Shown here piece after piece: positions 3,338 through 42,185 of a stretch of 42,219 bases of DNA (positions within the stretch are counted from its first letter, which is position 1; each line of letters opens with the position of its first letter). The notes beneath the pieces are model-generated. The model made no database searches and was not told where the DNA came from. It worked only from the letters and a program-made list of their open reading frames with translations. The DNA comes from a virus. Its lineage: Duplodnaviria > Caudoviricetes. Made by a program: the position numbers and the translations under genes. Location of the stretch: positions 1 to 42,219 of IMG/VR virus record IMGVR_UViG_3300044878_000044. One strand, given 5' to 3'.

Positions 3338-4198
3338 ATGAGTGATCACAGTGATTTGAAGAAGAAGGCCGAGGCAGCGCTTGTCGTTCATGACTCTTTC
3401 GAAGAGAACGCGAAGGCTGCACACCTTTACGTCTCGGCATCTGAGCCTGAAGTAATCCTTGAGCTGCTCGCCGAGATCGATCGCCTGCGAACTGCCGAAG
3501 GCGATGCCATGACCTACAAGGCCGGAATGGAGAACGTTGCCCAGCAGCGCGATCAGCTCAAGGTCGATCTCGAGCAGCTGGCAAAGAAAATTAAGCATAG
3601 CGACTACTGGCACGGGACGCGCTTCGAGACTCTTTTCCACTGGGCGCATCGCGAGCTGAACGACTCCCAAAAGAATCAGTATTTCAGCATCGTGGCGAAC
3701 GGCAGCTCCTACCCAGATGACCCGCCGACCTATGCCCAGCAGATGAATCAGCTGAAGTGGAAGGTTGAGGCTGCCGAGAAAGAGCGCGATCAGCTCAAGG
3801 TCGATCTCGAGCGACTGAAGCATGAACATCGGCTGCTGACCGAGCACAACGAATTTCTGGCCAGCTCCGACAGTCGACTCGCCCCTGAGCTGCGCGCCGT
3901 GAAAGACGCGCTCGGCCTTGATTTTACGGCCAGCGTTAGCGGTGAGGTGGTTCCGCTCATCGAGCGCCTGCGCAAGCTGCCGACCTGCTGGACTGAGGTT
4001 CTGGAGCAGTCCGAGGCGAACGATCAGCTGCTGGATCAGGTCCTGGAGCTGAGCCGGGACGCCGATCGACTGACTTGGCTTGACGAGTCCGCCGAGGTCG
4101 AGTCAGTCGGGCCGATGCGGTGCTGTGGGAAACATCTGCCGAGCCTTCGCGAAGCGATCGATGCCGCAATGGCATTGGAGAAATCGCTAACCCAGTGA
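3338..4198 (+). CDS. Ead/Ea22-like modular coiled-coil protein
   Basis: PEVILELLAEIDRL and RDADRLTWL...LREAIDAAM segments; purine-rich RBS-like GGAAGGG before ATG 3338. Confidence 0.65.
   Translation: MSDHSDLKKKAEAALVVHDSFEENAKAAHLYVSASEPEVILELLAEIDRLRTAEGDAMTYKAGMENVAQQRDQLKVDLEQLAKKIKHSDYWHGTRFETLFHWAHRELNDSQKNQYFSIVANGSSYPDDPPTYAQQMNQLKWKVEAAEKERDQLKVDLERLKHEHRLLTEHNEFLASSDSRLAPELRAVKDALGLDFTASVSGEVVPLIERLRKLPTCWTEVLEQSEANDQLLDQVLELSRDADRLTWLDESAEVESVGPMRCCGKHLPSLREAIDAAMALEKSLTQ
3546..3812 (+). repeat. 30-bp exact direct repeat (3546-3575, 3783-3812)
   Basis: AGCGCGATCAGCTCAAGGTCGATCTCGAGC twice, in frame, starts 237 bp apart. Confidence 0.9.
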
Positions 4199-4239
4199 GT
4201 GCAGTGCGCACCATGAGTACCATGCTCACGGTGCGCCTT
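4195..4239. repeat. 9-bp tandem repeat cluster A (candidate centromere)
   Basis: gtgagtgca/gtgcgcacc/atgagtacc/atgctcacg/gtgcgcctt. Confidence 0.65.
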
Positions 4240-4241
4240 TC

Positions 4242-4478
4242 TCAGCCCCTTGCTCGTAATGCGGCAACCTCGGCCTTCTCCACGGCCGACTCCAGATAAA
4301 ATGCCAGGCACATCTGTAGATGGCCCACTTGCTTGCCCAGCGTCTGACTTTCGTTAATATCGTCGCACGCCTGCCACTGCTGATAGCGCTCACGAAAGTC
4401 ATGCACCATTTTCAGCGCGAAGGCGTCCAGGGTCACGGTGACTTCGTCGGCTTGAGATTGCGGTTGTCCAGTCGGCAT
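4242..4478 (-). CDS. Hypothetical protein downstream of parG-like gene
   Basis: 78-aa ORF with AAGGGAG RBS, same strand as par genes. Confidence 0.65.
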   Translation of the reverse strand: MPTGQPQSQADEVTVTLDAFALKMVHDFRERYQQWQACDDINESQTLGKQVGHLQMCLAFYLESAVEKAEVAALRARG

Positions 4479-4503
4479 AAAACGGGCTCCCTTCTATCTT
4501 GTT

Positions 4504-4539
4504 GTGAGTACGGTGATACCGGTAATCACCGTGAGTTTT
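4504..4539. repeat. 9-bp tandem repeat cluster B (candidate centromere/operator)
   Basis: gtgagtacg/gtgataccg/gtaatcacc/gtgagtttt at the parG-like 3' end. Confidence 0.6.
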
Positions 4540-4744
4540 TGGCAATGTACTCGTCGATAAACCGCTTCACTTCCGTCGTCATGTCGGTCTCGTTGCGGCT
4601 ACACGCCCGCCAGAACTGTTCGTGCTTGTCTGGATCTAGCCGGACATTTAGACGCGCTTCCTTCCTTGCGGACTTGCTGGCCTGGGCCAGGATCTTCGGC
4701 GCCCTGTCGGCGACCTTGCTTGGTGCTGTGGTGAGTAGTTTCAT
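4526..4744 (-). CDS. parG: ParG-like ribbon-helix-helix centromere-binding protein
   Basis: 72 aa; flexible N-terminal tail then RLNVRLDPDKHEQFWRACSRNETDMTTEVKRFIDEYI, matching the recalled TP228 ParG RHH pattern; GGAGG RBS; directly after parA. Confidence 0.8.
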   Translation of the reverse strand: MKLLTTAPSKVADRAPKILAQASKSARKEARLNVRLDPDKHEQFWRACSRNETDMTTEVKRFIDEYIAKNSR

Positions 4745-4746
4745 GA

Positions 4747-5355
4747 TCAGGCCTCCAGTAGCCTCTTGACCGCTTCGGCGAAGCGCAGCGACTCCAGGCG
4801 TATCGCGCTGTCGCCGCTTCTCGTTGGTGTTCTCCCTCTGGCGATGGCTGTCGGGTATCCGATCCGGTCGCACAAGGGCACGCTAAGCACGGGCAGGCCG
4901 TAGCCGTTCAGGGCCTCGGAAATGTCCCGGCCGAGCAGCGTGTTCTGGTCCAGGCGGTTGACGTACAGCGCGGCGATGAACTCGGGTCGGTGCGCCAGGT
5001 GCGCCTTCATCAGCTCGATGGAGTCGGCGGCCGCCCAAATGTCAAAGATGCTCGGCGCGCACGGCAGCAGCGCCATGTCCAGGTATGGCAGCGCATCCGC
5101 AGACAACTCCCCCTTTGTGTCGATCACCGCGTAGTCAAACCCCGATAGGCCCTTCAGGTCTGACAGGCGCTCGGCGGTGAATATCTCAAGCGTGGTCGGC
5201 AGATTCGCAATCTCCACCCACCGGCTGACGCTGCCTTGCGGGTCGGTATCGATCAGGGCAACACGGTGTTTCTGAGCCAGCGCCCCGGCCAGGGTGACCG
5301 CACTGGTTGACTTGCCGGCCCCGCCCTTCTGCGTCCATAGCCCGATCTTCTTCAT
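4747..5355 (-). CDS. parA: ParA/ParF-family partition ATPase (short, type Ib)
   Basis: Deviant Walker A QKGGAGKST, IDTDPQGS, YAVIDT; no N-terminal HTH; start at 5355 or 5370. Confidence 0.92.
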   Translation of the reverse strand: MKKIGLWTQKGGAGKSTSAVTLAGALAQKHRVALIDTDPQGSVSRWVEIANLPTTLEIFTAERLSDLKGLSGFDYAVIDTKGELSADALPYLDMALLPCAPSIFDIWAAADSIELMKAHLAHRPEFIAALYVNRLDQNTLLGRDISEALNGYGLPVLSVPLCDRIGYPTAIARGRTPTRSGDSAIRLESLRFAEAVKRLLEA

Positions 5356-5389
5356 GAGTACGGTTCTCATTGTGAGTATTTGACTCACA
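5354..5389. repeat. 9-bp repeat cluster C over the parA start (two TGAG-N7-CTCA palindromes)
   Basis: atgagtacg/gttctcatt/gtgagtatt/tgactcaca; abuts a minus-strand TATTCT at 5389-5394. Confidence 0.7.
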
Positions 5390-5404
5390 GAATACATCTG
5401 GCTT

Positions 5405-5459
5405 GCGGATTCCGCTTGCATTGGTTGCAGATTCCGCCTAAAGTCTCTTCAGAGGGACC
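5405..5459 (+). promoter_or_regulatory. Sigma70 promoter with paired operators and 18-bp palindrome copy 2
   Basis: TTGCAT(5416)-N17-TAAAGT(5439); GCGGATTCCGC 5405-5415 and GCAGATTCCGC 5427-5437; AGTCTCT-TCAG-AGGGACC 5442-5459. Confidence 0.8.
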
Positions 5460-5487
5460 AGAAAGGGACCAGATCAGGGGTGAAGTT

Positions 5488-5637
5488 ATGTCGTTCAAGC
5501 AACTAGCCGTCGAAACAGCTCGCTATCACGGTCGCATGGCCGTCCGCGACCTGAAGTATTTCTGTAATTCCATCTCTGCTCGCAGCAACCGCGCCGAGCG
5601 TGACCGCTGGATGCAGCTTGCAAGGTCCGCTGCATGA
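5488..5637 (+). CDS. 49-aa protein, candidate anti-defence (Acr-like by context)
   Basis: AGGGGTGA RBS, ATG 5488, ATGA overlap with the downstream Aca-like gene. Confidence 0.7.
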   Translation: MSFKQLAVETARYHGRMAVRDLKYFCNSISARSNRAERDRWMQLARSAA

Positions 5638-5843
5638 AGCTGGACACAAACAACACGCAGAGCAACCCGGACTACATCCGGGATCTGATCAAGAAGTCCG
5701 GGATGACTCAGAAGGGCGCTGCCGAATCTATCGGCGTGGCCCCACGGACCTTGGCGGACTGGCTCAACGGAAATGCAAAGTGGTCCTACCCGGCGCAGTA
5801 CGCGCTGGAGTGTTTGGTTAAATACGGGGCGAAGACAAAGTGA
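5634..5843 (+). CDS. Aca-like XRE HTH regulator
   Basis: PDYIRDLIKKSGMTQKGAAESIGVAPRTL...YPAQYALECL aligns with the Aca1 homologue at 40162. Confidence 0.75.
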   Translation: MKLDTNNTQSNPDYIRDLIKKSGMTQKGAAESIGVAPRTLADWLNGNAKWSYPAQYALECLVKYGAKTK

Positions 5844-6841
5844 ACGACAAATCGAATCCGGTTGGCTGGATGGTGGAAATTTCCGGCGCTGACAAGTTCT
5901 TCTACAGCGAGAAATCCGCGCTCAATGCTCGCAAGCGGTACGAGCGCGACATGGATGCTGAGTCAGGCCCAGTTCCGTACGCGCTCTACAAAGCCGCGCC
6001 GCAACCCGCCGCCCACCTGACCATCCCCGGCGCGCTGGAGTGGGATGGTGATAATGGTACTCACGGTGTTGTTGGTACTCACGGTGCGGACGGTGAGTCG
6101 CGTGCGGACGGTGAGTCTGAAGTCGCGCCTTCGGCATACACCGCCGTCGACATGGCCACCGCTGCGGCTGACGGTTTCCGGGATGGGCTGGCTGCCTTTT
6201 CCGCCGACGGCAATCGAAACGTGCTCGCTGAGGTGTTTTTCCAGAAGGGCGACGATCCATTCATCTGCGCCGTGCGCGGGCGTGTCTGTGTCGAGCAGCT
6301 TGAGGCGGCTCAGCGAGACTTCCGCGAGAACCTGCCGGATGTGCTTGAGCAGGGCGACGGCATCTACACCTTCGACTTCTTCTACGAGAAAGGTCAGTAC
6401 GACGACTGGGGCCGCTGTGAGATCGCGCCGGGCTGGGGTTTCGACTTTGTCAGCTTCGCCGCATTTGAGGCTGGCGATGAGTCGCCGGTCGAGGTTAAAG
6501 CGGCATGCTCCCGCTGCGGCGGCTGGGGCCACATCGAAACCGAAGACAGCGCCCATGATTGCCCTGAGTGCGGGCCGAGCGTGGTCGAGCGGGCTGTCGA
6601 GGCTGGGGTGATGAATGCGCCGAAGCCATACGCAGCCATGAGCGAGGCGGAGGCTGACGAATTCCTGTCGTCGTTCGGCGGAGGCAGTGGCAACAAGGCG
6701 AAGCGTCGGATCGCGGAAATCGAAAAGGCCAAGCAAAAGACCTGCATCGAATGCGACCAGCCCTACTGCCACGGCGTATGCGTCGAGCGCGGCGATCAGG
6801 ACTATGACCGGGACCAGGCTGCGAAGGGTGGCGACCAATGA
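5840..6841 (+). CDS. Mosaic hypothetical protein with Cys-pair zinc ribbons
   Basis: CSRCGG...CPECG and CIECDQPYC motifs; contains 9-bp repeat cluster D. Confidence 0.75.
   Translation: MNDKSNPVGWMVEISGADKFFYSEKSALNARKRYERDMDAESGPVPYALYKAAPQPAAHLTIPGALEWDGDNGTHGVVGTHGADGESRADGESEVAPSAYTAVDMATAAADGFRDGLAAFSADGNRNVLAEVFFQKGDDPFICAVRGRVCVEQLEAAQRDFRENLPDVLEQGDGIYTFDFFYEKGQYDDWGRCEIAPGWGFDFVSFAAFEAGDESPVEVKAACSRCGGWGHIETEDSAHDCPECGPSVVERAVEAGVMNAPKPYAAMSEAEADEFLSSFGGGSGNKAKRRIAEIEKAKQKTCIECDQPYCHGVCVERGDQDYDRDQAAKGGDQ
6048..6119. repeat. 9-bp tandem repeat cluster D, 8 units, inside CDS
   Basis: gtgataatg/gtactcacg/gtgttgttg/gtactcacg/gtgcggacg/gtgagtcgc/gtgcggacg/gtgagtctg. Confidence 0.8.
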
Positions 6842-7194
6842 AGGCCCGTATCGAGAAGAAGCTGAGCAAGCGCCTGGTGCAAGCCTATCCATCGAGCTAC
6901 GGCTGCGCCTGGATTGACGATGAGCCGTCGGAACTTGCCTACGAACAGAACAGCCGGGTACGCCACTGCCCAAGTGTCGGCGGCGAGTACGACTCGTACG
7001 CCGGTGACTGCAATGAATCCTACACGGCCTGGGCGTCCTGGCTGATGCATTGGCCTTGGCATGGTCCGTTCGGCGATTACCCCGCTGGACACCAGTTCGA
7101 GCACTACCCAAACACAGACGGCTTCAAGCCGACCGCAAGGAATTTGCTGAAGTTGGCCGCCGAGTGCGAGCAGGCTGAGAGGGCGAAGCCATGA
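6838..7194 (+). CDS. Hypothetical protein
   Basis: 118 aa, ATGA-coupled on both sides. Confidence 0.75.
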   Translation: MKARIEKKLSKRLVQAYPSSYGCAWIDDEPSELAYEQNSRVRHCPSVGGEYDSYAGDCNESYTAWASWLMHWPWHGPFGDYPAGHQFEHYPNTDGFKPTARNLLKLAAECEQAERAKP

Positions 7195-7433
7195 GCGACT
7201 TCATCTACGACGTGGTGCACTTCGCTCGTGACACTGACGGCGGCCTGATCTGCCGGTGCCCGCACTGCCAGGCTGTGATCGGCATCGAGGGCGAGGAGGG
7301 CGACGACGTGCGCGGCGAGCAGTTCCAGTGCCGCTGTGGTGGGTGGTTGGAAATCACATCGCATGCCCGTTACATCAAGTTGCGCGGTGACGACACGCTG
7401 CCGGCCAACAAGGGGATTCCTGATGAAGACTGA
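7191..7433 (+). CDS. Small zinc-ribbon protein
   Basis: CRCPHC and QCRCGG motifs; ATGA coupling. Confidence 0.7.
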   Translation: MSDFIYDVVHFARDTDGGLICRCPHCQAVIGIEGEEGDDVRGEQFQCRCGGWLEITSHARYIKLRGDDTLPANKGIPDED

Positions 7434-7653
7434 GTACAAGGACACCATCCTCATCGAGTACCACTCGGCGATCAAAAAGACTCGCCATGTGAAGGTGCTT
7501 CGCAAGCAGGTCACCGGCCTATGCACGCCATTCAGCAAGGTGATCCAGAACGCCAAGCGGCGCCCGGTTGTGCAGGCCCGCATCAAGAAGCTGCGCAAAT
7601 ACCAAGCCCGCGCCTGGAAAGGTTACAGCTTCGGAAAGGTGATCAAGCCATGA
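7423..7653 (+). CDS. Small basic hypothetical protein
   Basis: AAGGGG RBS, ATG 7423, coupled to next gene. Confidence 0.65.
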   Translation: MKTEYKDTILIEYHSAIKKTRHVKVLRKQVTGLCTPFSKVIQNAKRRPVVQARIKKLRKYQARAWKGYSFGKVIKP

Positions 7654-7889
7654 GAAATATCCAAACCCGCGAGGGATACGACCTGTGGGACAAGGTTCAT
7701 GAATTGCCACGCTTCAACTTTTGGCGCGGCGGCGAGGATGAAAAAGGCAGCGTTATCCGGGCGCCGGAAAAGCACGGTAACTGGGTAAACTTCAACGACC
7801 TTACGGACTTGGCCGACCAGTACCAAGACGAGATCAATAGCCTGCGTGAGCGTCTTGCGCGCCTTGAGCCGAAGGCGGTGCATCCATGA
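7650..7889 (+). CDS. Hypothetical protein
   Basis: ATGA overlap at 7650, AAGGTG RBS. Confidence 0.7.
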   Translation: MRNIQTREGYDLWDKVHELPRFNFWRGGEDEKGSVIRAPEKHGNWVNFNDLTDLADQYQDEINSLRERLARLEPKAVHP

Positions 7890-7993
7890 TCGGGCTCGCT
7901 CTCTGGCTGGCAATCCAGCTCCCACTTGGTCATCTGATCGGCCGGGCCATGCGCCAAAAGCGCAAGTTTGACGAGGTGTTCAGGCATGGCTGA
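7886..7993 (+). CDS. 35-aa hydrophobic peptide (not in ORF track)
   Basis: MIGLALWLAIQLPLGHLIGRAMRQKRKFDEVFRHG fills the gap with overlaps on both sides. Confidence 0.5.
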   Translation: MIGLALWLAIQLPLGHLIGRAMRQKRKFDEVFRHG

Positions 7994-8456
7994 AAAGATC
8001 AGCGTCAACTGCCAGGCCAAGCTATCCGAGGCCATCACCGCGCTGAGCTCAATGTTCCGCGACAAGAAGTTCGTCGTCGTGTCGCTTCGCCCGGGCAAGG
8101 ATCGCACCCTGGATCAAAACGCGCTGTGGTTCGCCTTTTACAAGCGCATTGCCGAAATGACGCAGATCGGCGACCCGGCTGACGCCCGGCGCTACTGCAA
8201 ATTGCACCACGGCGTGCAGATCCTGCTCAACGATGACCAGGAGTTCCAGAATTCCTGGTACCGGGTCATGCGCCATCTGCCCTACGAGGAAAAGCTTTCC
8301 ATGATGGGCGATTGCAAGTTGTTCGGGCCGGATGGCTTCCCTGTGACCAGCTTGTTCAATCGCGCCCAGGGCATCGCCTACACCGATCGCATTGTCGCCG
8401 AGTTCACAGCGCAAGGCGTGTTCTTCGGTGATCTGCTGAGCGAGGTGGCTGCATGA
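7986..8456 (+). CDS. ninB: NinB/Orf-like recombination protein
   Basis: RTLDQNALW motif; position before ninG; GAGGTG RBS. Confidence 0.7.
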   Translation: MAEKISVNCQAKLSEAITALSSMFRDKKFVVVSLRPGKDRTLDQNALWFAFYKRIAEMTQIGDPADARRYCKLHHGVQILLNDDQEFQNSWYRVMRHLPYEEKLSMMGDCKLFGPDGFPVTSLFNRAQGIAYTDRIVAEFTAQGVFFGDLLSEVAA

Positions 8457-9037
8457 CGATCGAGCGCAAGCAGCCGCGACCGAAAAAGTGCAAAAACCCA
8501 GCCTGCAAGACCTCGTTCGTCCCGCAGCGACTCGGGCAAGCCGTCTGCAACTACGCCTGCGGCCTGGCCATCAAGGACGTGAACCAGGAGAAGGCGCGCA
8601 AGGCTCTGGCTGATGTAGGGCGCAAGGAGTTGAAAGCCGCCAAGGAGCGCATCAAGCCGAAGGGTCAGTACATGCGTGAGGCGCAGGCCGCTTTCAATGC
8701 CTGGGTGCGCGCCAGGGATGCAGGCCTTCCATGCATATCGTGCGGAACAACGGCGGATATCCAGTATGCAGCCGGGCATTTCAGATCTGCCGGAGGGCAC
8801 CCAGAGCTTAGGTTTGACCCTCTCAATGTCCACCTTCAATGCAATCGCAATTGCAACATGGCCAAGTCTGGAAACCTTGGGCCTTACCGGATCGAGCTGA
8901 TAAAGCGCATCGGGCAGGAAAAGGTCGATTGGCTGGAGGGCCCGCATGAGCCAAAGCGCTACACCATCGAAGACCTGAAGGCCATCAAGGCCCACTACCG
9001 GGCGCTGGCCCGCGAACTGAAGAGAGCGACAGCATGA
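8453..9037 (+). CDS. ninG: NinG/Rap endonuclease
   Basis: AQAAFNAWVRARD, CISCG, AGHFRS, LRFDPLNVHLQC, WLEGPH. Confidence 0.92.
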   Translation: MTIERKQPRPKKCKNPACKTSFVPQRLGQAVCNYACGLAIKDVNQEKARKALADVGRKELKAAKERIKPKGQYMREAQAAFNAWVRARDAGLPCISCGTTADIQYAAGHFRSAGGHPELRFDPLNVHLQCNRNCNMAKSGNLGPYRIELIKRIGQEKVDWLEGPHEPKRYTIEDLKAIKAHYRALARELKRATA

Positions 9038-9297
9038 AGAATATCGACAAGATGCGCGAAGAGTTTGAGGCGTGGCATCGGAGTGTTGTTGCTGGCGATC
9101 CGCCCCATGAAAAATACAACTCCGGGGATTATCGCAATCAGCACGTTCAGCGGTACTGGCTTGGCTGGAGATCGTCCCGTGAGGCGATGGTGATTGAACT
9201 ACCTAAGTTCGACGACTACCCGGCCAGCATGGAGCTCGAAATGCAGGAGTCGCTGAGGGGTGTCATCGAGGCCGCCGGCCTGAAGGTGAGGCCATGA
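9034..9297 (+). CDS. Hypothetical protein (MREEFEAW...W..SRE module)
   Basis: ATGA-coupled ORF; N-terminus resembles that of 40382..40945. Confidence 0.75.
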   Translation: MKNIDKMREEFEAWHRSVVAGDPPHEKYNSGDYRNQHVQRYWLGWRSSREAMVIELPKFDDYPASMELEMQESLRGVIEAAGLKVRP

Positions 9298-9452
9298 ACC
9301 GCCGCCCATCCATGTTTCAGCAGCCAGCGCCATCGCCCTGGTACGTCACCAAAACCAAATGCACCGAGTGCGGCAAGTCTCGCGCCACGGGCAGTCATGC
9401 GAAGTGCAGTCGGGCGCGGCAGATGCGCTTTGCGGGGGAGAACAAGGCATGA
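9294..9452 (+). CDS. 52-aa Cys/His peptide (not in ORF track)
   Basis: MNRRPSMFQQ...CTECGKSRATGSHAKCS...; ATGA overlaps at both ends. Confidence 0.6.
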   Translation: MNRRPSMFQQPAPSPWYVTKTKCTECGKSRATGSHAKCSRARQMRFAGENKA

Positions 9453-10339
9453 GCCTGATCAAGGAGCGGAAAGCCATTGTGTTGGGCGCTCGTTTCAGTC
9501 GGCTTGTAGCCATGCACCAAAGCGAAAGCCGAGGCAAAAAAGCATTTTGGTTTTTTATTTGTGATTGCGGCGAGCGTGTAGAGCGAGCGGCGGGCGACGT
9601 TCTGTCTGGAAGGACCAAGAGTTGCGGCTGTTTGAGGCGTGAAATGTCGGCCAGCAGGAAGCCAGATGATCTATCAGGGGAACGATATGGCCGCCTGAGA
9701 CCAGTCCGGCGACTGGATAAGTCTATGGGGAAATCTCGCTGGATATGCCTTTGTGATTGCGGGAAAACTACCGAGGTTGCCGCTTCAGAGCTTCGCAAGG
9801 GAAGCACGGTAAGTTGCGGCTGCTACCGCGCAGAGCGGGCGTCTATAGGGAACTCCCTGAATATCCAGGGGCAGACGTTTGGCCGGCTGACCGCAATCGA
9901 AAAAACATCTAGCGGATCTTGCGGGGTCACATGGTCTTGCAGGTGTGCGTGCGGGAAGGATCACAAAGCCTTGGCAGCTGACCTATCTGGAGGCCGGGTG
10001 ATTTCATGCGGATGCGCCGTATTAGACAAGCCAGGGCTTATAAATTCAGCATTGAATAGCAGGAAGTTGGCGTCTAATCATTCTCGTCGGGCAAAGGCTC
10101 GCGGGGCTGGCGGAAGTTTCACGGCTCTTCAGGTTTCCGACCTTTTTAAAAAGCAGAGGGGTCGATGCGCCTGCTGCAAGAAGAGAGTAAGAAAATATCA
10201 CCGAGATCATCGCCTGGCTCTAGCCAATGGCGGAGACAACAGCATCCGCAATATTGAGCTTTTGTGTTCCTTGTGCAATTTGAAGAAGGGCGCAAAGGAC
10301 GAAATTATCTGGGCGAATCAAAACGGAAGGCTTCTATGA
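9449..10339 (+). CDS. HNH endonuclease with three Cys-rich repeats (homing-type)
   Basis: 3x GxxF/YxRL...WxxxCxCG...SCGC; C-terminal HRDH...GGDN...NIELLCSLCN; AT-richer than flanks. Confidence 0.85.
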   Translation: MSLIKERKAIVLGARFSRLVAMHQSESRGKKAFWFFICDCGERVERAAGDVLSGRTKSCGCLRREMSASRKPDDLSGERYGRLRPVRRLDKSMGKSRWICLCDCGKTTEVAASELRKGSTVSCGCYRAERASIGNSLNIQGQTFGRLTAIEKTSSGSCGVTWSCRCACGKDHKALAADLSGGRVISCGCAVLDKPGLINSALNSRKLASNHSRRAKARGAGGSFTALQVSDLFKKQRGRCACCKKRVRKYHRDHRLALANGGDNSIRNIELLCSLCNLKKGAKDEIIWANQNGRLL

Positions 10340-36006: not shown

Positions 36007-37020
36007 CTAAGCCACCGATACGACTTTTGGGCTACCAACTTTAAAAAGCTTATTCAGTGGCACCTCAAGCCATGCGTAACATATATACCCCGAGACAAGA
36101 GCCGCCGAGATCAGAATGAGCGACGAGATCATAACGTTCGACTGAAGATGTAAGGCCTTTATAACAACTGCGGAAAGTGACAGTGCAAAGGGGTGGAATA
36201 AATAAAGCGAGTAGGAAGAGTCTCCAAGCACTTTAAATGACCACAGTATTTTTTTGTGGCTGGCCTTTTTTAGGTCCGACTCAAAACCGACAAAGCCAAT
36301 GAATATGCAAAGCATTGGAAGGCCAAAGCAGAGCGCTCGGTATGGCGTTTTCCCATACTCAGAAAATGCACACAGCGCAATCATCCCCAAAATAATTAAG
36401 CCAGCATTTATCAACTTGTGGCCTGAATATTTCTGCAGGTAAAGGTAGGCCGCCATACCCATGGCGAACTCCAAGAGTAGCGAGCTGGTTAGAAAACCTA
36501 ATGCGGCGCCGCTCGGCTCAAGCAGGAGGCCTGCACAAACAAGCGAACAGAGTACGATTATTGTATTTCGTATTTTGTTATCAGCATTAATGGAAATAGA
36601 GGCCGCGAAAAGTATATAGAATAAAAACTCAAAGCTTAATGTCCATCCATTCTGTATTAGTAGTTTTTCACCAATCGGGAACAGGGTGAAGGAATGCAGA
36701 ACGGTGGTGGTTCCGCCACTGCTATTCACCAGTTCAGGCCGCATGATGAATATGGCGAGTGCTACAAGACTCAAAAACCAATACAAAGGGATGATTCGTT
36801 TAACTCGCGCCAACATAAAAGATGTCGGTGAGATTGCTTTCTTCTCTGTTGCTTTACACATGATAAAGCCTGAAATTATAAAGAACAGATCAACTCCAGC
36901 TGGACCAATAGAAAACCACTCTCCCTTGTATCCTGATAGCTGACTAGTCTTTGTAAAAACGTGAGATATCACAACTAGCAGTGCGGCAAATCCGCGTAGG
37001 TATTGCACTGAGTAAACCAT
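36007..37020 (-). CDS. Acyltransferase-3 family membrane O-acetyltransferase (moron)
   Basis: QYLRGFAALLVVISH, GVDLFFIISGF, RVKRIIP, WTLSFE, SYSLYLFH, LEVP; AT-rich, opposite strand, AAGGAG RBS. Confidence 0.92.
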   Translation of the reverse strand: MVYSVQYLRGFAALLVVISHVFTKTSQLSGYKGEWFSIGPAGVDLFFIISGFIMCKATEKKAISPTSFMLARVKRIIPLYWFLSLVALAIFIMRPELVNSSGGTTTVLHSFTLFPIGEKLLIQNGWTLSFEFLFYILFAASISINADNKIRNTIIVLCSLVCAGLLLEPSGAALGFLTSSLLLEFAMGMAAYLYLQKYSGHKLINAGLIILGMIALCAFSEYGKTPYRALCFGLPMLCIFIGFVGFESDLKKASHKKILWSFKVLGDSSYSLYLFHPFALSLSAVVIKALHLQSNVMISSLILISAALVSGYICYAWLEVPLNKLFKVGSPKVVSVA

Positions 37021-40161: not shown

Positions 40162-40407
40162 TTATTTGTCGCCGGACTGCCCGGCCTCATTTGCCAGCGC
40201 CTCAAGCGCGAACTGCACGGTGTACGGTGCTTTGCGGTACGTTTCGTGGTCGGTGGCCACTAGGTAGTAGCGCAGCGCCCGGTCACTCATGCCGAGTGCG
40301 GCGGCAGCCTTTCGCTGGCTGATGCCGGCCTTCTCCAGCAGCCCGCGCAGATATGCCGGGTCTGGGTTGTACAGTGAGGCATCAGGCTTCATTTGATTTG
40401 GCTTCAT
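40162..40407 (-). CDS. aca1: Anti-CRISPR-associated protein Aca1 homologue
   Basis: PDAS.Y.PDPAYLRGLLEKAGISQRKAA..LGMSDR.LRYYL...YRKAPYTVQFALEALAN closely matches JBD30 Aca1 as recalled; start 40407 or 40392. Confidence 0.9.
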   Translation of the reverse strand: MKPNQMKPDASLYNPDPAYLRGLLEKAGISQRKAAAALGMSDRALRYYLVATDHETYRKAPYTVQFALEALANEAGQSGDK

Positions 40408-40945
40408 CTTCAATCGCCGCGTCGATAGCTGCATCGTCCAGATGCTCGAACCATGCCGCCGCATTGAATTCGTGAACGTGGTGATAGCTGCCGGTGTCGT
40501 AGTTGTTGGCTCGAAGCCAGCGATGGCGCTCGGCATCCTTCCTGTCCCGATCCATGATCTTGTCGGCCTGGCGCATGTCACCCTGCGAGCATTCAAGTAG
40601 AGCGGAAAGGCGTTTGTTATCGATCCTGAGCTGTTCGCGCTCAGCCATTGCGACTTTGACGAAATCAATAGCCTGCTGAAGTGGCGCATCCTCGGTCATA
40701 TCTGCATGGGTTAGGGCTATCGCGGACAGCTCGCCAGCGATTCGAACGAAAGCCTTTTGCCATTGGCCTGCATCCGCCATCGCAGCCTCGCGGGAAGCCT
40801 GCCATGCCCACCAACCAGTCTTGACCCAGTCGCAATCATAGGAGCCATCAGGTCGAAGCTTGAGGACTTCCTCTCGCTCTTCCTCGAAGCTGTTGATCGC
40901 AATGTAGGCCGCCTCGAACTCTTCGCGAATCTTGTTGATATCCAT
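40382..40945 (-). CDS. 187-aa protein in the acr position upstream of aca1
   Basis: First gene after the operator-bearing promoter; overlaps aca1 start; acidic, helical. Confidence 0.75.
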   Translation of the reverse strand: MDINKIREEFEAAYIAINSFEEEREEVLKLRPDGSYDCDWVKTGWWAWQASREAAMADAGQWQKAFVRIAGELSAIALTHADMTEDAPLQQAIDFVKVAMAEREQLRIDNKRLSALLECSQGDMRQADKIMDRDRKDAERHRWLRANNYDTGSYHHVHEFNAAAWFEHLDDAAIDAAIEDEAKSNEA

Positions 40946-40994
40946 CCCGTCCCACTCCGATATTCGCCTCGCCCGATTGGCTGGCATGGGCCTT

Positions 40995-41023
40995 ACTATA
41001 GGAACACTGTTCCTACCTTGCAA
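40995..41023 (-). promoter_or_regulatory. Sigma70 promoter with Aca1-type inverted repeat
   Basis: Minus strand TTGCAA-N17-TATAGT; 17-bp palindrome TAGGAACA-C-TGTTCCTA at 40999-41015. Confidence 0.88.
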
Positions 41024-42185
41024 GAGCCTGAGCAGGATATTTTTCAGCGCTGCCAAACATCGCCGCCGCTTTATCTCCAGACGAGTCGCCATCGGTTGGA
41101 ATCCAGCGCCCGTATACCCGGGCAATCATCAACCACGACGCATGCCCCATCTGCTTCGCCACCCACATCGGATGCTCGCCCGCGCTCAGCATCATCGAGG
41201 CGTAGGTGTGCCGGGTCTGGTACGGGTTCCGGTAGCGCACGCCGGCCCGGCGGATGGTCGGCGTCCAGAGTGACTTGCGCAGCTCCTGGTCACCGTTGAA
41301 TGCCCGGTTGTGCCTCGGGTCGTGGAAAACGGCCTTCCCTTCTATATAGGTGTGCTCGCGCTGGGACTTCAGTGCCTCGAACGACATCGGCAGCAGACGC
41401 ACGCTACGCACCCCGGCCGCTGTCTTCGGCGTCTCTGCCTCACTGGCCGCCGCCGTCAGCCCTCGCGACACCCTCACTTCCCCGCGATGCCAGTCGATGT
41501 CGCCCCACTCCAGCGCCACAAGCTCCGACGTGCGCAGCCCGGTCCAGAAGGCGAACTGCAACAGGTTCCGATACTGCCCGGTCGCTGCCGCCAGAATGGC
41601 CCGCTGTTCGTCCGGACTGAACGGGTCGATCTCGTCCTCGGTGCGCGGCTTGCCCTTCACTGAATACGTCCAGCCGGCCAGTGGGTTCGACTCGATCAGC
41701 TCGTCGTCCACGGCATCGCTCAGGGCCGATCTCAGGCATGACTGAGCGTTGGCCAGCCGCTTGTTCGTCGCCGACATCCTGGCCATGGCCGCCTTGACCT
41801 CTTTGCGCGTGACCGAGGCCAGCGCCAGGCTGCCCAGCGTCGGGACCAGAACACCGGCAACGATCTTGCGGTAACCGTCCAGCGTGGACGCCTTCAGGAT
41901 GCCGGCCTTGCGCTCAAGCCATTCGTCCAGGTACTGGCCCAGCGGCACCTGTCCCGACTGGCCGACAGCCGACGCCGCCCGCTTCGACCGTGGAAACGCC
42001 TCGGCATAGTCGAATTCCCCCCGGTGAATCGCCAGATCAATCGAGGCCTTCTGCTGCTGCGCCCGCTTCAGGTTGGCCGGAGTAGGCTCCAACGGCAGGC
42101 GCTCCCGGCACTGCTTGCCGTCGACCATAAAGCTGATCTCGATACTGCTTTTCGATGCCGCACGCACCCCGCGCTTCGCAGCCAT
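41013..42185 (-). CDS. int: Tyrosine integrase with N-terminal arm-binding domain
   Basis: TGLRTSEL, PKT, YQTRH, QMGH, RVYG catalytic motifs; uninterrupted 390 aa. Confidence 0.95.
   Translation of the reverse strand: MAAKRGVRAASKSSIEISFMVDGKQCRERLPLEPTPANLKRAQQQKASIDLAIHRGEFDYAEAFPRSKRAASAVGQSGQVPLGQYLDEWLERKAGILKASTLDGYRKIVAGVLVPTLGSLALASVTRKEVKAAMARMSATNKRLANAQSCLRSALSDAVDDELIESNPLAGWTYSVKGKPRTEDEIDPFSPDEQRAILAAATGQYRNLLQFAFWTGLRTSELVALEWGDIDWHRGEVRVSRGLTAAASEAETPKTAAGVRSVRLLPMSFEALKSQREHTYIEGKAVFHDPRHNRAFNGDQELRKSLWTPTIRRAGVRYRNPYQTRHTYASMMLSAGEHPMWVAKQMGHASWLMIARVYGRWIPTDGDSSGDKAAAMFGSAEKYPAQALAR

Follow-up and report, generated by a model that had tools for sequence, protein, structure and literature searches.

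An Aca1-related HTH gene behind a variable gene slot in a putative self-limiting early cassette of uncultured tailed phages

The closest described counterparts of the locus analysed here are the acr-aca1 operons of the Pseudomonas phages JBD30, MP29 and DMS3 (PDB 7C0G, 7FA3 and 7VJM). Published work reports that Aca1 operons carry motifs at both the DNA and the RNA level, and that Aca regulators are linked to genes for R-M and DNA modification (PMC13551039); that methyltransferases, some of them orphan ones, cluster with acr genes (PMC7648647); that aca-like genes often occur without acr neighbours (PMC9410906); and that 7 of 27 candidates linked to aca1 or aca4 were Acrs (PMC7913775). Aca1 is reported to contact bases through Arg44, Val45, Arg47, Tyr48 and Arg59, its Ser42 to Ala mutant to bind hardly at all, and IR1 to have a buffering role (PMC8633003). 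Bidirectional control is reported for Aca11 and Aca13 (PMC12282945).

We analysed a viral record of 42,219 nucleotides, hereafter the window, in which database profile annotation identified a tailed phage with replication genes, NinB/NinG, lysis, head and tail genes and an integrase. An earlier note on this DNA had proposed an acr-aca operon at 5405-5843. The locus resembles acr-aca1 in its homologous small HTH protein (41% identity), in a cargo gene placed upstream and coupled by ATGA, and in having one operator 5' of the -35 hexamer and the other in the spacer; as in MP29, an 11-bp core of the form G-C-x-x-n3-x-x-G-C ends 1 bp before the -10. It differs in that the HTH belongs to a separate clade and keeps one of the five base-contacting residues, in operators with GCGG, GCGA or GCGC instead of the GGCAC of Aca1 (GGCAC-n3-GTGCC), and in a core spacing of 22 bp as compared with 25 bp in MP29. 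By inspection, the 5'UTR hairpin sequence of MP29-type Aca1 is absent, and an 18-bp phage-wide site stands in its place. Unlike acr-aca1, the locus is always placed between parA and the nin region, and a recognisable Acr was found in none of 31 slots. A further likeness is to Aca-regulated non-CRISPR anti-defence operons, in which an Aca-type repressor stands over R-M, DNA-modification or unknown genes (PMC13551039; PMC7648647); those operons were found beside known acr homologues or Aca motifs, whereas here a distinct HTH clade marks the slot. From the sequences, the locus appears to work like an acr-aca module that has an operator code of its own. In the text of the largely open-access papers covered by our search, no account of this HTH clade or its operators was found.

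Genomic setting and promoter region

The window begins within a small regulator gene and is without the cro/left-arm region that is present in a complete 51-kb relative (G001). All named relatives of the phage's parts come from Pseudomonas or close genera, and the related loci are metagenomic virus contigs. The close HTH clade was absent from the 401 Pseudomonas-genus genomes searched, where each of the 6 matches was either more distant or a true Aca1, and the GTDB species genomes yielded one distant HTH locus. Contigs of one public run, which may be the same sample, were identical to positions 5264-6032 with zero differences. A contig in one run skips 5471-5634. The sequence recovered from an RNA run was that of a diverged relative and is uninformative on expression here.

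The genes parG (4526-4744) and parA (4747-5355) lie on the minus strand, divergent from the cassette. On the parA side of this part (4526-5394), a 17-bp palindrome occupies 5372-5388, and a minus-strand -10-like hexamer for parA at 5389-5394 is conserved in 31/31 loci. The phage combines parA-parG and GTGAGTA-type repeats (4190-5394 and 6045-6120) with a tyrosine integrase (41013-42185). The presence of parA-parG together with an integrase suggests a phage that may either be maintained as an episome or integrate.

On the plus strand, a sigma-70 promoter, TTGCAT-N17-TAAAGT, is predicted at 5416-5444, with TTGCAT at 5416-5421 and TAAAGT at 5439-5444. Operator IR1 (GCGGATTCCGC, GCGG-n3-CCGC; 5405-5415) abuts the -35, is kept in 31/31 loci and also falls within the -35/spacer region of the promoter predicted for the divergent parA gene. 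Operator IR2 (GCAGATTCCGC; 5427-5437) is located inside the 17-nt spacer, 22 bp from IR1, and ends 1 bp before the -10. The promoter and both palindromes are therefore present as the earlier note had described them, with the pair in all 31 loci, and its comparison of the IR1/IR2 layout with acr-aca1 held, given the MP29-like end of the IR2 core. The predicted promoter has 7 of 12 consensus bases, and a promoter scan did not report it; in 27 of the 31 related loci the -10 is TATAGT, closer to consensus than the TAAAGT of this phage. The frequency of a single 11-mer operator was within chance (6 sites against 3.63 expected, allowing up to 1 mismatch), whereas that of the pair was above chance, with 1 in the window against 0 in 30 base shuffles.

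An 18-bp palindrome, GGTCCCT-N4-AGGGACC, lies at 5442-5459, overlapping the -10 and start site, with an extra half-site at 5464-5470. It was present in all 31 cassette promoters. When up to 3 mismatches were allowed, the window contained 7 such sites, where 1.51 were expected; they lie at 121, 5442, 11053, 13601, 29384, 33103 and 38072, several of them promoter-like spots. Five related phages had 5-6 exact degenerate sites each, and the reversed-pattern control gave 0. The global motif that the earlier note had placed in this promoter is thus real, and a second, phage-wide control site is supported. Dual control by the HTH protein and a repressor acting on the 18-bp sites is plausible from this distribution, and a KorA/TrfB-like gene that precedes the replication operon (E 3.7e-4, below the cut-off) is a candidate binder. 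The alternative that the 18-bp element forms a 5'UTR hairpin was rejected, because in most loci one of its halves overlaps the -10. In G001, cro and a cII-like gene were present; the interval from cro to the left operon contained zero cI ORFs and was flanked by 18-bp-like sites (8718-9630 of locus L048). A cro gene without an adjoining cI, together with phage-wide 18-bp sites, is an unusual immunity design.

Downstream of the HTH gene, overlap-coupled genes that include NinB and NinG homologues (5840-9452, plus strand) are joined by 11 successive start/stop overlaps, and a scan of the plus strand from 5843 to 9000 gave zero intergenic terminator-like sites. By this arrangement, the genes at 5840-9452 likely share the HTH transcript, and the operon likely extends into the nin region.

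The HTH protein and its operator classes

The gene at 5634-5843 (plus strand) encodes a predicted HTH repressor of 69 aa and is joined to the slot ORF by the ATGA overlap. The protein matched the Aca1 structure PDB 7c0g over residues 4-62 (E 2.7e-8) and phrog_3865 (E 2.4e-11), and was identical to MP29 Aca1 at 28 of 68 positions (41%). Among GenBank phages it had 131 matches, all below 60% identity, and the best among the matches listed, about 40% identical, were Aca1 genes from acr loci. In a 20-row tree (short proteins, midpoint root), five Aca1-type rows, namely MP29 Aca1, the second Aca1 of this phage, L055, L056 and L058, grouped at 99/96, and this HTH fell outside them. The earlier note had related the HTH to an Aca1 homologue; the homology was confirmed by the structure match, yet the protein lies outside the Aca1 clade. 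We regard it, from its sequence, as Aca1-related but not a member of Aca1 proper; it would represent a sister clade (WSYPAQYALECL type) with several operator specificities. Weak matches to MqsA/HigA-type antitoxins were all below the cut-off.

Of the five base contacts of Aca1, the HTH keeps Arg44 alone (as Arg38), which matches an altered operator that keeps G5-C6; Val45, Arg47 and Tyr48 are replaced by Thr, Ala and Asp, and a gap stands opposite Arg59. The Aca1 backbone contacts Arg22 and Gln32 are retained, and Ala36 occupies the position of Ser42, which counts against binding.

Related loci numbered 39, from which L028, L029 and L043 (distant, without the promoter anchor), L040-L042 (contig edge) and L032, L038 and L039 (duplicates) were dropped, so that 30 loci and this phage made up the final set of 31, including the near-identical pairs L034/L035 and L001/L002. 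A search with the operator DNA pattern returned the same 4 contigs as another locus search. All 31 loci carried the divergent parA-side anchor, the 18-bp site and two 11-bp operators 22 bp apart. The inverted repeats lie over the operon's own promoter in every locus and match the recognition helix, as is expected of an Aca-type regulator. Six loci with the helix APRTLAD had G at position 4 of the half-site in 24/24 cases; the 19 loci with GHRTIGD had GCGA in 53 and GCGG in 23 of 76 half-sites; the four with GQRTLVD had GCGA in 12/16; and the single loci with SRRAMNE and APRTIAN had GCGC and GCAG, respectively, in 3/4 each. The same cargo can accompany different HTH classes, as the 87-aa cargo does in L004 and L013 and the methyltransferase cargo in L003 and L017, and the operators stay with the HTH class while the cargo reassorts, with 0 to 1.3 kb of DNA separating the two. 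The matching of half-site and recognition helix is suggestive; the classes come from about five lineages, which leaves the matching confounded with descent. Since the operator pair is present in 31/31 loci and its bases vary in step with the recognition helix, autorepression by the HTH protein is likely.

Contents of the slot and the 49-aa protein

The slot ahead of the HTH gene was hypervariable, being occupied by a methyltransferase-like gene in 9 of the 31 loci (once frameshifted, once followed by an HNH-like gene), empty in 6, and filled in the remaining 16 by small proteins of eight unrelated families. The small cargos were proteins of 87 aa (4 loci), 60-65 aa, 89 aa and 140-143 aa (3 loci each), and, in one locus each, 61 aa, a 49+74 aa pair and the 49-aa protein of this phage. 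The six empty slots keep the operators and the HTH gene, so the regulator does not exist solely for the cargo. Five of them (L010, L027, L033, L036 and L037) retain a four-codon minigene that overlaps the HTH start.

The methyltransferase-like cargo was assigned to PHROG 757 'DNA methyltransferase' in all nine loci, and its P-x-C and ENP motifs were invariant in 8 aligned rows. Its nearest Atlas clusters were DNA cytosine methyltransferases (score 0.95-0.96), with PF00145 on 28% of one cluster. Direct searches of Pfam, NCBIfam and PDB gave zero matches, and the structure model was poor (pLDDT 38.7). On these family and motif assignments, the commonest cargo is likely a DNA (cytosine) methyltransferase. 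In the distant loci L029 and L043/L054, reading of the translations placed the HTH gene between a methyltransferase-like gene on its upstream side and parA downstream.

No recognisable Acr was found among the slot cargos of the 31 loci by Pfam, PHROGs and NCBIfam, with PDB searched for four cargo types and with the 49-aa profile. In control searches, AcrF2 was found by Pfam, missed by NCBIfam and labelled unknown in PHROGs, and Pfam gave zero matches for the gene that precedes a true aca1 in L055; the libraries are therefore incomplete, and the absence of Acrs is a soft negative. The earlier note's identification of the operon as an acr operon is not supported by these slots, the commonest cargo of which is methyltransferase-like and six of which are empty. 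Within the same incomplete libraries, the HTH homologues had no acr neighbour in any of the 31 close loci, one of the outcomes that the earlier note had set beforehand as refuting its proposal.

The slot gene of this phage (5488-5637, plus strand; RBS AGGGGTGA at 5476-5483) encodes a 49-aa protein predicted to form a basic two-helix hairpin and belonging to an unnamed phage early-gene family with the motif RYHxRMAVR...RD. Its basic nature (pI 10.8) and its coupling to the HTH gene through the ATGA overlap agreed with the earlier note; its description as an orphan was refuted by 19 other clusters in a profile search, which gave 20 of 28 candidates. The 20 clusters comprise proteins of 46-70 aa, 50-80% identical, one of them from Pseudomonas amygdali, and the 19 aligned members had pI values of 10.3-11.9 and invariant RYHxRMAVR and RD. 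With the 49-aa sequence as direct query, Pfam, NCBIfam, PDB, IMG/VR and GenBank phages gave zero matches, the Atlas no usable match and PHROGs weak rows alone (E 0.06-0.3), and a PDB search with the profile yielded a single row, attributable to chance (E 1). The model was a confident hairpin (pLDDT 96); Foldseek gave zero matches at E 0.001, and the best of 658 chains at Z of at least 5 reached Z 8.3. The matches listed in these fold searches were generic hairpins with no Acr among them, and kinship is still possible.

Four relatives of the 49-aa gene could be placed in context (L045-L047 and L053). Reading of the ORFs located them in the early-left operons of lambdoid phages, none adjoining an HTH gene, which likens the 49-aa gene to the accessory genes of that region, presumably including kil, cIII, ral and N. 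Unlike those genes, it has no sequence match to any named family, and it has moved into an Aca-type slot. The relatives in L045 and L047 come after a terminator; in L046 and L053 the relative is first or second after a leader that we take to be boxA-like. Long, structured-looking non-coding leaders and repeated hairpins surround the relatives in all four. The gene next to the relative in L045 is itself a relative of the 89-aa cargo, which has another early-left relative in P. fluorescens phage UFJF_PfDIW6. The occurrence of both families in early-left operons elsewhere indicates that the slot draws on a general pool of early accessory genes. A second slot occurrence is hinted at by P0003, 80% identical to the 49-aa protein, and the HTH protein P0017, whose longest contigs have the same length (44,576). 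The 49-aa protein presumably resembles an N-like antiterminator in being basic and, in two relatives, near boxA-like leaders; this role was rejected, because the protein is dispensable in 30/31 slots. In our reading, it is a small basic protein that would bind either nucleic acid or an acidic host protein. A part in counter-defence of any kind is conceivable but rather doubtful for it.

Readings of the cassette and a second aca1 operon

On balance, we favour the reading that the promoter, the swappable slot and the Aca1-related HTH gene form a self-limiting early cassette whose slot protein would likely aid the phage against its host. In such a cassette, transcription by host RNA polymerase would start at the promoter once the DNA has entered the cell or upon induction, producing an early burst of cargo, HTH protein and coupled nin-region products, until HTH dimers occupied IR2 and blocked the promoter. 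IR1 might buffer, as in Aca1, or govern divergent transcription of parA. During dormancy, the cassette and other promoters could be silenced by another phage repressor bound at the 18-bp sites. The slot protein would help the phage against the host. Counter-defence functions are known for none of the cargos. Restriction is a likelier target than CRISPR, and the cassette more likely times anti-restriction or host-manipulating genes than CRISPR inhibitors.

The main competitor, to which we give a minor but appreciable weight, is a housekeeping switch. The promoter would restart rightward nin-region transcription past the opposite-strand parA-parG insert, the HTH protein would cap it and perhaps tune parA via IR1, and the slot would hold accessory genes without an anti-defence role. 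The six empty slots with intact operators and HTH gene fit this, as do the 11 overlaps that couple the HTH gene to NinB/NinG, the parA -10-like hexamer conserved in 31/31 loci with IR1 at its -35/spacer region, and the early-left location of the 49-aa and 89-aa families elsewhere; the report that aca-like genes often lack acr neighbours (PMC9410906) points the same way. However, the fast turnover of small genes right behind an Aca-type promoter, and the methyltransferase-like cargo in 9/31 slots, fit selection by host defences. We consider it unlikely that this is a true acr-aca operon whose 49-aa product inhibits type I CRISPR-Cas, and the protein is correspondingly improbable as an anti-CRISPR. 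A small gene directly 5' of an Aca1 relative, the acr-aca1 promoter geometry, the 7 Acrs among 27 linked candidates (PMC7913775) and the gaps in the Acr libraries that AcrF2 exposed speak for it; they are opposed by the lack of any recognisable Acr in 31 slots, the position of the HTH outside the 99/96 Aca1 clade, the four relatives without an HTH neighbour and the single chance row of the profile against PDB. A toxin-antitoxin pair that stabilises an episomal phage, with a toxic 49-aa protein and the HTH as antidote, would suit two small coupled genes beside parA-parG and the sub-threshold MqsA/HigA-type matches, but is very improbable, as the HTH accompanies ten unrelated slot contents or none, and relatives of the 49-aa protein exist without it.

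The self-limiting cassette could be extended to a broader, tentative proposal that we think unlikely to hold in full: a sister family of Aca1 with an operator code (GCGG, GCGA, GCGC) would mark a counter-defence slot of constant position in a group of uncultured phages, of which a complete relative has no cI beside cro. The eight small cargo families of that slot, the 49-aa hairpin included, would be inhibitors of host defences, whether or not CRISPR is among these, and would be released under the joint control of the HTH protein and a phage-wide repressor. The HTH clade provides a guilt-by-association marker and a shortlist of eight small phage protein families for defence screens, and the natural series of repressors and operators could reveal how Aca1-type proteins shift their DNA specificity. 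The locus also cautions that acr-aca architecture by itself does not make a cargo anti-CRISPR.

A second, canonical-looking aca1 operon lies on the minus strand at 40162-41023, just after the integrase gene. Its promoter, TTGCAA-N17-TATAGT (41023-40995), contains the operator GGAAC-n3-GTTCC (41013-41001), and its Aca1 (40162-40392) is identical to MP29 Aca1 at 49 of 73 positions (67%). The MP29-type 5'UTR hairpin sequence is present, together with a 187-aa cargo gene. The operon was found in 3 of 10 relatives searched, with different cargos (74; 55+68; 59 aa), and these small cargos had zero Pfam matches. As Acr candidates, the cargos of this second operon rank above the 49-aa gene. Elsewhere in the phage, an O-acetyltransferase (PF01757) moron at 36007-37020 (minus strand) lies between the tail fibre and endolysin genes, and its family assignment makes a role in serotype conversion likely.
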